From NCBI GenBank assembly GCA_016184345.1, contig JACPCV010000005.1, positions 97,017 through 161,016 on the forward strand: a stretch of 64,000 nucleotides of DNA, given 5' to 3'. Positions 7,418 through 42,355 of this stretch are shown here, in pieces. The translations under genes and the position numbers were made by a program. The stretch comes from Candidatus Woesearchaeota archaeon. Lineage in GTDB: Archaea; Nanobdellota; Nanobdellia; Woesearchaeales; UBA10216. Numbering within the stretch: the first letter of the stretch is position 1; the number at the start of each line of letters is the position of its first letter. Below the pieces are notes generated by a model. That model was not told where the DNA came from, searched no databases, and saw nothing but the letters and a program-made list of their open reading frames with translations.

Positions 7418-7792
7418 TTAAGCAACTACCGGCACAGGAATAGGCAGTTTCTTCTCAACGATAGTGTTTTCATTCTTCCCTGGAATGGAGAGTTTAATCC
7501 ATACTATGGCATAATCTGCCCTCTTGCTAACAGTTATTTCTGCGCTTTTGAGTTCAGCTAGGTGCTCTTTTTGCACACCAACGTGATTAAGGAACTCCGA
7601 GGCATAAACCAATTCAATGCCAACAATGTTGCTGTTTTTGTCAAAATCAAAACTGAAGTCAGAAAGCTCTGCACTTCCTTCAACCTTCTTCCCTCTTCTG
7701 TGTATGTTCAATATGTCGGATTTCTCATTATAATCCCACACAAAATATCTGTCCTGGCCAGCTGTCATGGTTTCCATTACATCATTTATCAT
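7418..7792 (-). CDS. DUF2283-like small protein (putative antitoxin partner)
   Basis: YFVWDYNEKSDILNIHRR...FDFDKNSNIVGIELVYASEFL follows the DUF2283 pattern. It lies immediately downstream of 7795-8127. Confidence 0.45.
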   Translation of the reverse strand: MINDVMETMTAGQDRYFVWDYNEKSDILNIHRRGKKVEGSAELSDFSFDFDKNSNIVGIELVYASEFLNHVGVQKEHLAELKSAEITVSKRADYAIVWIKLSIPGKNENTIVEKKLPIPVPVVA

Positions 7793-7794
7793 AT

Positions 7795-8127
7795 TTAAAA
7801 CCTTCGTCTTTTGACTGATCCTAACCTGAAATTACTGCTTAGTCTCTTAACTGTCCGGATATTTACCTTCCTGTAGACTAATAAATCCACTATTATTTTC
7901 AGTTCAGTTTTCCTGTTAAGCTTATAGTAGAGCTTATAAACCTTGGGCCTATCTTCAACCACTCTTATAAGTTCGTGTGCCTTCCCACGCAATACGCTCT
8001 TAACATACTCCAAAGTTATGCCATTCTCCTCGCAGCGCATAGCGACATGCGGCTGGTCAGCAGTAATGTCTTCCTCACTAAGCCCTTGAGCTAGCTTATT
8101 AAAATCGGCAGGTTCCATGCAACTCAA
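7795..8127 (-). CDS. DUF4258-like small protein (putative toxin partner)
   Basis: PHVAMRCEENGITLEYVKSVLRG resembles the DUF4258 H..RM.ERGI core. Adjacent to the DUF2283-like gene with a 2-nt gap. Confidence 0.35.
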   Translation of the reverse strand: MSCMEPADFNKLAQGLSEEDITADQPHVAMRCEENGITLEYVKSVLRGKAHELIRVVEDRPKVYKLYYKLNRKTELKIIVDLLVYRKVNIRTVKRLSSNFRLGSVKRRRF

Positions 8128-8177
8128 CTTCTTTCTCAGGTTCAGGAGAACTCGTATTTAAACCCCAGCCGGGCATC

Positions 8178-8283
8178 TGTCCAGTGCAAATCGGTTACGC
8201 CGATTGCACACAGCATCGGCAACAGCCGATGCGTATAGGCGGCGTAACCGCCTATATTCCGCATCGCGGAATTGTGTCCAGTG
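8178..8283. repeat. Four-hairpin array flanked by 9-bp direct repeats TGTCCAGTG
   Basis: Direct repeats at 8178-8186 and 8275-8283. Hairpins at 8186-8207 (bulged), 8213-8232 (gcatcggc/gccgatgc), 8235-8255 (ataggcgg/ccgcctat) and 8256-8272 (attccgc/gcggaat). Confidence 0.85.
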
Positions 8284-8430: not shown

Positions 8431-8835
8431 ATGATAGTGTCAGAGAAAAAACTCGTTGTTGCGTGCGTAATAGTGGCTGCTGCGGGTATTTTTACTCTTT
8501 TATTCCTGTCATCAGTTCTGCAGCCGCTGCAGTTGCCTGTTTCAAAGGCGTCAGAGCTGGCGTGCTCAAAAACAGGAAACAGCGAGAAAGTGCGCATTCT
8601 CGGCTTCATTGACTCTGTTTCCATACGTAGCAATCACGCCCTGATTACGGTTTCAGGCAGTGAAACAATAGAGGCAATAAGCTTTGACACGGCTCAGGTT
8701 AAGGAACTAGGGCTTAAAAGGTTCCAGCGTGTTGAAATCACAGGCCAGCTCAGGAATTACAACGGCAAGCCTTCATTAGTTATAACAAAATTAAGGCAGG
8801 TTAATGGCAGTTACGGCTGCAGCTGCGGTGGTTAG
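8431..8835 (+). CDS. Membrane-anchored OB-fold protein
   Basis: N-terminal TM (LVVACVIVAAAGIFTLLFL). The C-terminal part, VRILGFIDSV...RVEITGQLRNYNGKPSLVI, is typical of OB-fold nucleic-acid-binding domains. The start could be 8389. Confidence 0.5.
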   Translation: MIVSEKKLVVACVIVAAAGIFTLLFLSSVLQPLQLPVSKASELACSKTGNSEKVRILGFIDSVSIRSNHALITVSGSETIEAISFDTAQVKELGLKRFQRVEITGQLRNYNGKPSLVITKLRQVNGSYGCSCGG

Positions 8836-41449: not shown

Positions 41450-41508
41450 GCACAATTTTACTTAAAATTTTAGTAAAATTTATAAATACTAAGGTTCTTA
41501 GTAATGTT

Positions 41509-41757
41509 ATGAGTGAAACGACTGTCGTAACACGGGGAAGTCAGATAACCCTGACAAAAGCCATAAGGGAAAAAACCGGCATAAGGGAGGGAGATACGGT
41601 TACACTAAACGTGGCTGGGGGAAATGTAATCGTTGCCAAAAGGGACCCGTCTGTGTTTGACAATCTTAAAAGATTCCTGCCTGATAATTTTGAAGAAATC
41701 CTAAAAAAGACGCGAACAGACGACAGGAAACGGTTAAAGAGGCTTGGCATTATTTAA
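41509..41757 (+). CDS. vapB: AbrB/SpoVT-type antitoxin (VapB-like)
   Basis: VVTRGSQITLTKAIREKTGIREGDTVTL. tttataaata lies about 25 nt upstream. Confidence 0.7.
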   Translation: MSETTVVTRGSQITLTKAIREKTGIREGDTVTLNVAGGNVIVAKRDPSVFDNLKRFLPDNFEEILKKTRTDDRKRLKRLGII

Positions 41758-41760
41758 ACA

Positions 41761-41913
41761 ACAGAATTCCACTCATCTATGATGAGTGGGGTTCTGTGTG
41801 CTCAAAAACCACCGGTTCGTGGAATTCTGAGCGTCAAAACAGCATCGGCAGCAGCCGATGCGTATCGACCCGAGGTCGATAAATGCCACCGGTCTCTGAC
41901 CGGTGGTTTTTGA
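41761..41913. repeat. Multi-hairpin element inserted between vapB and vapC
   Basis: Hairpins at 41769-41789, 41842-41861 (gcatcggc/gccgatgc, as at 8213-8232), 41863-41881 and 41887-41907. A 14-bp long-range stem pairs 41804-41817 with 41900-41913. Confidence 0.85.
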
Positions 41914-41926
41914 CAGGCGATAATTC

Positions 41927-42355
41927 ATGAAGATACTCTTTGACACCAGCGCACTGATAGAGCTGGAAAGGCAAAATCAGGAAGCTATTGTGCTTGTCAA
42001 AGGCTTAATCACAGGCAAAGAAGAAATTGTGATAAGCACCGTAACTATTTCTGAAGTATTGTTAGGCGTTTATTTCCAGAAAGCTTATGAAAAAATTGTA
42101 GAGGCCAAAAAGCTCCTATCCCAGTTTAAATGGATACCTTTGGATGAAAACATAGCCGATATGGCGGCCCAGTATGAGGCGTTGCTGCTGAACATTGGGA
42201 ACGAAATTGAATTCAAGGATGTTGCAATAGCCGCAACCTTTGCAGCCACGAAATCAGATTTTTTAATTACACAAAACAAGAGGCATTTTCAAATTTTGCC
42301 AGATATTGGAAACAGTGCCAAAACGATTGCAGAATTTAGCAAAATTTATCGGTAA
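41927..42355 (+). CDS. vapC: PIN-domain toxin (VapC-like)
   Basis: MKILFDTSALIELER...DVAIAATF...LITQNKRHF. Confidence 0.8.
   Translation: MKILFDTSALIELERQNQEAIVLVKGLITGKEEIVISTVTISEVLLGVYFQKAYEKIVEAKKLLSQFKWIPLDENIADMAAQYEALLLNIGNEIEFKDVAIAATFAATKSDFLITQNKRHFQILPDIGNSAKTIAEFSKIYR

Follow-up and report, generated by a model that had tools for sequence, protein, structure and literature searches.

Nested hairpin repeats, probably selfish, in a predicted promoter box and a vapBC operon of a Woesearchaeota archaeon

Within a 64,000-nt window of a Candidatus Woesearchaeota genome (G000, contig C6, positions 97017-161016), four consecutive hairpins lie at 8178-8283 between two perfect copies of the 9-mer TGTCCAGTG, upstream of a toxin-antitoxin (TA)-like gene pair, and one of them recurs in the spacer between vapB and vapC. 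The question raised by this locus is whether the array is a transposed unit with its target-site duplication, a device acting in DNA or RNA, or the product of smaller mobile repeats. The assembly (884 kb in 6 contigs, 48% G+C, 85% complete) was compared with 61 related genomes and, at genus level, with a set of 11; genomes of this lineage of DPANN archaea measure 0.9-1.2 Mb. Genomes are cited by G numbers and contigs by C numbers, the latter referring to G000 unless another genome is named. We consider it likely that the array was formed by two very small selfish hairpin repeats, one on top of the other, in a regulatory box upstream of the TA-like operon, and that it is not a device in its own right.

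All parts of the array described in the initial annotation are present. Hairpin 1 (GTGCA-a-ATCGG / CCGAT-TGCAC, 8184-8209) has a bulged A and is followed by hairpin 2 (GCATCGGC-aaca-GCCGATGC, 8213-8232), hairpin 3 (TATAGGCGG-cgtaa-CCGCCTATA, 8234-8256) and hairpin 4 (8256-8272). Folded as single-stranded DNA, the array reaches -35.7 kcal/mol, compared with -18.7 kcal/mol for shuffled sequences (z = -6.7; none of 200 shuffles equalled it). The window contains the flanking 9-mer at these two places only (0.41 copies expected), but the genome has 47 copies (about 6 expected), which makes it a dispersed motif and not a local duplication. Read on the other strand, most of its copies form the tandem CACTGGA-CACTGGACA, a 16-mer of two 7-nt units, which opens a promoter module of about 40 nt continuing with three variable nucleotides, a conserved GCCCGGCTAGGG-like stretch and the TATA box TATTTAAA. 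The TATA box begins 15 nt after the tandem box, and the ATG usually lies 28-35 nt after the start of the TATA box, which indicates leaderless or short-leader genes. About 20 such promoters were found in G000: the tandem is exact in 14, degenerate in 3 and split in 2, and one promoter has a single box. The window contains only the one at 8155-8186, and others lie, for example, at C2:25330, C3:163221, C5:58738 and C6:23065. They precede genes for RadC, a Cas4-like PD-(D/E)XK nuclease, two Bro-N proteins, a D12 Dam methylase, two RNase H-like exonucleases, Nre, LAGLIDADG-like proteins and several TA-like pairs. The exact tandem 16-mer is present in 36 of the 61 related genomes, including the whole genus, and a reversed-pattern control gave no match anywhere. 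A motif search distal to the box returned merely a weak enrichment of CGGAAAA and TTTTCG words. The tandem box is most likely a binding site for a regulator of DNA-repair, nuclease and TA genes, and the module has the appearance of an operator that serves an undescribed DNA-metabolism regulon.

Orthologous promoters show what stood at this place before the hairpins. The sole orthologue of the 107-aa gene behind the array, in G012 (66% identity), is preceded by the uninterrupted module CACTGGACACTGGACA-N13-TATTTAAA-N22-ATG. At a second promoter of G000, that of an operon for a ribbon-helix-helix (RHH) protein and MazF, nothing separates hairpin 1 from hairpin 4, and the pair is enclosed by two boxes, with 96-97% identity to the counterparts in the array. 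The G004 orthologue of this RHH-MazF promoter has near-identical flanks and an intact box, which leaves a net insertion of 44 nt in G000. The tandem box of the G007 orthologue is also uninterrupted, and there a six-hairpin array abuts a second, single box about 100 nt away, at a site that is empty in both G000 and G004; given these differing filled and empty states in the three genomes, insertions at boxes are lineage-specific. Six different promoters, spread over five species, have the junctions TGTCCAGTG/CAAA..GGAATTG/TGTCCAGTG, and four more loci have the same right junction with the cassette abutting a single box, so that insertion of the outer cassette at boxes is, on the junction sequences, strikingly site-specific. 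The apparent 9-bp direct repeat arises because the cassette starts with TG and thereby completes the proximal 7-nt unit to TGTCCAGTG. On this comparison, the ancestral promoter of the 107-aa gene is reconstructed with a tandem CACTGGA-CACTGGACA 15 nt upstream of its TATA box, and a 41-44-nt twin bulged-hairpin cassette entered exactly between the two 7-nt units. The suggestion that the 9-bp flanks are target duplications consequently falls: the genome census and the orthologous empty sites identify them as the paired units of a tandem promoter box that was there before the insertion.

Hairpins 2 and 3 form a second cassette. The 46-nt unit that they make up is missing from the RHH-MazF promoter and occurs alone on contig C1 with 97.8% identity (Table 1), and it is therefore a separate insertion, with a duplication of at most one ambiguous A; it entered the junction of hairpins 1 and 4 as a second step, its target duplication being no longer than 1 nt. 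Cassettes of this second type have the form CAGCATCGGC-N4-GCCGATGCG followed by another hairpin, the GCATCGGC hairpin being constant and the second one variable, and 25 copies were found in 7 of the 11 genus genomes and in this genus only. At least seven variants of the second stem exist, all of them paired (TATCGACC/GGTCGATA, TATAGGCGG/CCGCCTATA, CATAGGCGG/CCGCCTATG, CATAGGCAG/CTGCCTATG, TATTGGC/GCCAATA, TATTGGTC/GACCAATA and CAGAGACAGC/GCTGTCTCTG), and some differ on both sides of a base pair. The earlier proposals that the hairpins are modular and insertion-competent, and that the hairpin following the shared one can be exchanged while its stem is kept, are borne out by the 46-nt unit and these variants, and also by a 42-nt relative that stands alone in G004, G005, G007 and G009. 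Some copies of the second type occupy loops of main-type hairpins, some separate a hairpin from the cassette centre, and others follow the centre (in the present array and in G007, G009 and G006). They are also found in a larger element described below and, once, within another copy of the second type; nested copies always have the orientation of their host element.

One MITE-like (miniature inverted-repeat transposable element) unit of four hairpins, transposed as a whole with a 9-bp target-site duplication, would explain the two perfect 9-mers around the array, and similar composites with hairpins 2 and 3 enclosed by hairpins 1 and 4 occur in G007 and G009. We regard this reading as barely credible: the 9-mer is a 47-copy promoter motif that normally stands in tandem without any insert, the composite at G009:C10 lacks it at its flanks, the array demonstrably consists of two units with one nested in the other, and the empty sites in G004 and G012 contradict transposition as one element. 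A mini-CRISPR or an attC-like site was also considered and rejected, as the repeats are just 9 bp long and are promoter boxes at a fixed distance from the TATA box, and nothing suggests an adjacent recombinase.

A further explanation is that box, hairpin pair and box together form a selected operator variant, in which the twin hairpin fixes how far apart the boxes lie (51 or 97 bp between their centres, approximately whole helical turns) or a cruciform extruded under supercoiling joins them; in both cases the promoter's regulation would be tuned. The identical junctions at six promoters in five species fit this idea, as do stems that vary yet stay paired (AATCGG, AATCGGC and AATCGAC) and closing stems of the cassette that make use of the GTG of the box. 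However, the cassette is missing from orthologous promoters in G004, G007 and G012, the tandem units abut at 14 of the approximately 20 box promoters of G000, the nested 46-nt unit alters the spacing again, and the same cassettes are also found in open reading frames (ORFs) and unrelated spacers. In addition, arrays within 150 nt of a box number 5 of 46, compared with 1.9 expected under random intergenic placement (simulation maximum 7), a weak enrichment that also led us to reject the box as a general attractor of hairpin arrays. A selected operator therefore appears distinctly unlikely. Under the preferred reading, that of nested selfish repeats, little effect of the array on its promoter is expected, because the proximal box keeps its 15-nt distance to the TATA box and promoters with a single box exist; the effect would be near neutral. 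In four metagenome runs the array is fixed, with no population polymorphism seen, and a 20-kb comparison of metagenome runs containing relatives gave no clean cassette-sized joints.

Two further loci with the box bear on its surroundings. The RHH-MazF operon (C2:172381-172860; orthologues L061 in G007 and L062 in G004) apparently has two tandem promoters, a second TATA box lying about 75 nt downstream of the box promoter and 30 nt before the ATG, and in G007 an extra small hairpin, ggctgcataaaccggttatgcagc, is inserted between both promoters. The segments C2:552-694 and C5:41016-41110 share a 77-nt stretch bordered by a degenerate tandem box and by a third copy of the box, and the C2 copy also has a 49-nt self-contained twin cassette at aaagt/ttccgg without duplication.

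The second site of interest is the vapBC operon, where a gene for a PIN-domain toxin follows one for a small DNA-binding antitoxin in a single operon, as expected of a type II VapBC system. The gene pair is kept in 8 relatives, and vapB is conserved in G009, G001, G005 and G008. As the initial annotation noted, hairpin 2 with its trailing GTAT recurs at 41842-41865, in the vapB-vapC spacer, and is followed there by a different 8-bp hairpin, TATCGACC-cga-GGTCGATA. In the G009 orthologue, which has the same upstream kinase-like gene, vapB and vapC are joined by ..GGCATTATTTAA-gggtgataatcc-ATG, with 12 nt from the vapB TAA to the vapC ATG; the G001, G005 and G008 operons also lack an insert and have spacers of roughly 20-60 nt. 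The two genes thus do not normally overlap, as had been supposed, but are separated by roughly 12-60 nt. Since the orthologues are free of it, the segment 41758-41915 represents 158 nt of inserted sequence that starts immediately behind the vapB stop codon, and no sequence was duplicated: the filled G000 site reads ..ATTATTTAA, insert, GG(C/G).. against the empty G009 site, without a repeat at the ends, and the TTTAA that ends vapB is already present in G009. An element does therefore split this operon, although it is not one hairpin array but a 116-nt MITE with a nested cassette. A search of the 61 genomes found insert positions 1-82 and 124-157 as a 116-nt element in G009, G005 (several copies), G025, G022, G003 and G019, and copies free of the nested unit occur in G009, G005, G025 and G003. 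Positions 83-124 are the 42-nt cassette of the second type, which stands alone, 98-100% identical, three times in G009, twice in G007 and also in G005 and G004. All seven of the MITE copies compared are preceded by TT(T/C)AA, and they all end in TTTTTGACA, have variable right flanks and carry similar subterminal hairpins in the same orientation; 11 nt separate the left end from the palindrome CCACTCATC/GATGAGTGG and 9 nt separate CCACCGGTC/GACCGGTGG from the right end, and terminal inverted repeats are lacking. The 42-nt unit stands 4 nt before the right palindrome, and the G022 copy of the MITE has another cassette nearby. On the comparison with G009, the MITE entered straight after the TTTAA that ends vapB, having gained its second-type cassette beside its right hairpin. 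In metagenome X5, contig joints skip 42-43 nt at the nested cassette, and a minor contig (depth 20 versus about 290) joins 41754 to 41916, which corresponds to the empty site, although its shorter side of just 29 nt makes this weak evidence.

Three observations belong beside this locus. The minor X5 allele without the insert has CAA in place of the vapB stop codon TAA, which would lengthen VapB by 3 residues to end 3 nt before vapC. The vapB promoter (41455-41505) contains the AT-rich inverted repeats TACTTAAAATTTTAGTA and TACTAAGGTTCTTAGTA around its TATA box, which are kept in G009, G001, G005 and G008 and are probably an operator for autoregulation by VapB. An element of about 180 nt (C2:98560-98760, G006:C22 and G005:C60) has the layout of the vapBC MITE, in the order AGAATT..CCACT hairpin, GAAAATTCTGAGC, a cassette of the hairpin 2 type with CAGAGACAGC as its second hairpin, and CCCACC..GGTGG-TTCTT, and appears to be a sister family of that MITE.

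The vapBC spacer brings in the possibility that the arrays act in RNA, as terminators or processing sites (both already raised in the initial annotation, beside an effect on TA stoichiometry) or as stabilisers, and in particular that the vapBC insert has been retained for setting the VapB:VapC ratio. Predicted folding of the spacer RNA is very stable (z = -9.0), a sense-strand hairpin followed by T5 ends the insert 15 nt before vapC, and vapC remains intact. Bacterial REP and BIME elements attenuate transcription and stabilise mRNA, according to work cited in PMC3733652. On the other side, 8178-8283 is located upstream of each of the two divergent promoters that flank it, the one on the minus strand and the likely one of the plus-strand gene at 8431, where an ATTAAT precedes the ATG by about 28 nt, so that an RNA role is unlikely there and the array itself is probably not transcribed. 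Cassette copies lie in both orientations and half of the arrays are inside crude ORFs, the insert is missing from the closest vapBC orthologue, and the sequencing runs containing the locus are DNA metagenomes only, with no RNA runs among them. An Rfam 15 covariance search of the window at gathering score returned one tRNA only, with no match to a known RNA family at the array or in the vapBC spacer. For the arrays in general we consider a function in RNA unlikely, and such a role, or one in TA stoichiometry, is plausible for vapBC only. Archaeal RNA polymerase terminates at oligo-T tracts. With the MITE hairpin and TTTTT placed before vapC, read-through into the toxin gene is therefore expected to be reduced, and the hairpin with T5 may lower toxin expression. 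A bacterial-rule terminator scan did not list the right MITE hairpin, probably because the rule extends the stem into the T-run, and the T5 was read directly from the sequence. In addition, the Shine-Dalgarno-like GGTGAT of the empty vapC allele is GGCGAT in G000; the 9-bp hairpin with T5 and the altered Shine-Dalgarno element would together lower the toxin relative to the antitoxin, a change that would be tolerable to the cell. Coordinates of the features at both loci are given in Table 1.

Table 1. Features of the hairpin array and the vapBC locus, in coordinates of the window
Feature	Position	Strand	Evidence or remark
Left half of outer twin bulged-hairpin cassette (hairpin 1, AATCGG type, and central GCAC)	8187..8210	+	Contiguous with right half at C2:172712-172771
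Nested 46-nt cassette CAGCATCGGC..CCGCCTATA (hairpins 2 and 3)	8211..8256	+	Missing at C2:172712; alone at C1:32015-32060
Right half of outer cassette (hairpin 4, ATTCCGC-atc-GCGGAAT-TG)	8257..8274	+	
Promoter-proximal box copy TGTCCAGTG (CACTGGACA in gene orientation)	8178..8186	.	47 genome copies
Distal box copy TGTCCAGTG, displaced by 88 nt	8275..8283	.	Units abut in orthologous promoters of G012 and G004
TATA box of the 7795-8118 operon (TTTAAATA on minus strand)	8155..8162	-	TATA box 15 nt from box at about 20 loci
G+C-rich spacer between box and TATA box (gatGCCCGGCTGGGG in gene orientation)	8163..8177	-	GCCCGGCTAGGG-like at most box promoters
107-aa gene, first of TA-like pair, driven by box promoter	7795..8118	-	ORF; G012 orthologue 66% identical, with same promoter module; Pfam search without match
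DUF2283 gene, second of TA-like pair	7418..7792	-	Pfam PF10049, E = 7.4e-7
vapB, AbrB/MazE-type antitoxin	41506..41757	+	Pfam PF04014, E = 1.3e-4, 22.3 bits, just under the 24.7-bit cut-off
158-nt insertion: 116-nt PATE-like MITE (41758-41839 and 41882-41915) with nested cassette	41758..41915	+	Empty site in G009
Left subterminal MITE hairpin, CCACTCATC-tat-GATGAGTGG	41769..41789	+	
Nested 42-nt cassette CAGCATCGGC..GGTCGATA	41840..41881	+	Missing from other MITE copies
Right subterminal MITE hairpin CCACCGGTC-tct-GACCGGTGG and TTTTT	41886..41911	+	15 nt before vapC ATG
vapC, PIN-domain toxin, intact	41927..42355	+	Pfam PF01850, E = 8.5e-12; 93% identical to G009 orthologue

The genome-wide repeat census that the initial annotation had called for supports a dispersed family. 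In G000, two or more perfect hairpins stand side by side in 46 arrays, compared with 1-2 in Markov-simulated genomes, and twin bulged hairpins built as xxxCA-[hairpin A]-centre-[hairpin B]-TGxxx account for most of these. Of the 46, 23 are situated within crude ORFs, with PurD, SufC and ABCE1-like genes among them. In-frame twin cassettes were noted in the conserved housekeeping genes at C2:220460-220555 (PurD), C2:160303 (SufC-like), C3:5623 (ABCE1-like) and C2:56872 (C-terminus of an L18-like protein). The PurD cassette was tried as a third test of target duplication and proved unusable, because it lies within a palindromic element of greater length, about 95 nt, which is the actual insertion and which the G009 PurD gene lacks.

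How such repeats would move can be approached through the cassette ends. The cassettes would move as, or into, single-stranded hairpin DNA, and the mobilising enzyme would act in trans. In the type-I pair of filled and empty sites at the box (GTG..CAC..GTG), the pre-existing flank triplet recurs at the far end of the insert, and the type-I pair in the G022 copy of the MITE has GCG..CGC..GCG; in both of these clean pairs the flank triplet is the reverse complement of the cassette centre, and its repetition may be a 3-bp duplication. Among the cassettes of G000, the flank triplets are identical in 8 of 26, and the right triplet is complementary to the centre in 23 of 26; the GCAC subfamily adjoins GTGTCCAG at 10 or more loci. 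In IS608, the target is chosen by base pairing. It is conceivable, though rather unlikely, that the twin cassettes are minimal guide-bearing transposons of single-stranded DNA, consisting of fused end hairpins like those of IS200/IS605 elements, in which the centre triplet pairs with the flank and picks the target. If this were true, the GCAC subfamily would home to the operator of a DNA-repair regulon, and the mover would be an enzyme other than a recognisable Y1 transposase, since most host genomes have none.

Several points weigh against the interpretation of the arrays as mobile selfish repeats. The box-cassette-box arrangement at six promoters, with stems that have diverged and are still paired, could reflect selection and not targeting. 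The Y1 transposase domain Y1_Tnp (PF01797) has no match in the 85% complete G000 genome and, within the genus, is found only in G002 and G005; the C-terminal zinc ribbon of TnpB (PF07282) is absent from G000 and from most genus genomes. Across the genus, the presence of cassettes does not follow that of transposases, and at 13 loci of relatives (8 TnpA and 5 TnpB, from 26-27 genomes searched) no exact GGTGGTTTTTGAC or CAGAATTCCAC end motif was found. The insertion signature is inconsistent, as two pairs repeat the flank triplet and a third breaks the rule: C2:552, with self-contained closings (CCC..GGGCCC..GGG), repeats none when compared with the empty C5:41016. Furthermore, every genome compared is a metagenome assembly, the runs with the locus are of DNA only, and the empty-site contig from X5 has just 29 nt on its shorter side.

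Comparison with published mobile repeats places the cassettes near several families without assigning them to one. Like the bacterial REP, BIME and REPIN repeats served by RAYT Y1 transposases (PMC3116915, PMC2817692, PMC3733652), they are short bulged palindromes present in many copies and mosaic clusters, intergenic as well as in frame, with a structure kept by paired changes, and the excess of arrays over simulated genomes shows the high-copy clustering of short imperfect palindromes that characterises REP/REPIN sequences. However, the REP tag GTAG/CGTC does not occur in the cassettes, which start with CA-AATCGG or CAGCATCGGC and end with ..AAT-TG or ..ATA; the host is an archaeon of the DPANN group with no RAYT/Y1 gene in its own genome; and the cassette is a pair of hairpins in direct, not inverted, arrangement that enters loops and junctions of other copies. 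The PATEs (palindrome-associated transposable elements) of Haloquadratum walsbyi, including 52-bp PATEs made up of the termini only, derive from IS200/IS605-type transposons (PMC3119063). The 116-nt MITE is like them in lacking terminal inverted repeats and target duplication, in having near-terminal palindromes and in lying beside a fixed TTYAA pentanucleotide, and the twin cassettes resemble a fused pair of PATE terminal palindromes; no cognate insertion sequence with matching ends was found among the 13 TnpA/TnpB loci of relatives, and the host is not haloarchaeal. SMR-A, also from Haloquadratum, measures about 110 bp, has inverted termini, makes no duplication and preferentially enters PATEs at or beside their near-terminal palindromes, its route of movement being unknown (PMC3119063). 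The cassettes are likewise small, free of a transposase and of target duplications, and inserted into a PATE-like element near a palindrome, but at 41-49 nt they consist of two different side-by-side hairpins without inverted termini.

Rickettsia palindromic elements, of about 100-150 bp and with a CGTC tag (discussed in PMC3733652), are palindromic repeats that also lie in frame inside protein genes, as half of the arrays here may do, being located in crude ORFs. Unlike these, both copies under study, the array and the vapBC insert, are intergenic. One insertion sequence that targets REP palindromes is IS1397. Others are treated by Tobes and Pareja (2006), as cited in PMC3733652, and the likeness lies in mobile DNA that homes to the loops of palindromic repeats; those are full elements with a transposase, whereas here invader and target are both non-coding mini-hairpins. 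The fixed-length target duplication of classical MITEs is lacking, since the 9-mers are pre-existing box units and the second-type cassettes leave at most 1 ambiguous nucleotide. As judged from their sequences, the elements described here differ from these published relatives in being smaller, in lacking the GTAG/CGTC tag and a recognisable transposase in the genome, and in lying repeatedly in the operator box of a regulon. A full-text literature search found no description of palindromic repeats in Woesearchaeota, and for one Woesearchaeal genome a census reports that the density of MITEs is very high (PMC11602168).

Collectively, the array and the vapBC insert most likely belong to a new archaeal variant of known small palindromic mobile repeats, mobile-DNA litter of a poorly described kind rather than a novel device made of RNA. 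The perfect 9-bp direct repeats that enclose the array are no footprint of transposition here but the tandem box of a predicted regulator, split by a mobile hairpin. Because orthologous empty sites are available, these DPANN genomes are seen at base-level resolution to contain hairpin elements of 40-50 nt in layers, which have entered one another as well as promoters and gaps within operons. The family would move without a recognisable transposase, and as selfish DNA its phenotypic effect is probably small; at vapBC, it provides a natural pair of alleles with and without a hairpin-T5 element, which is relevant to the balance of toxin and antitoxin.

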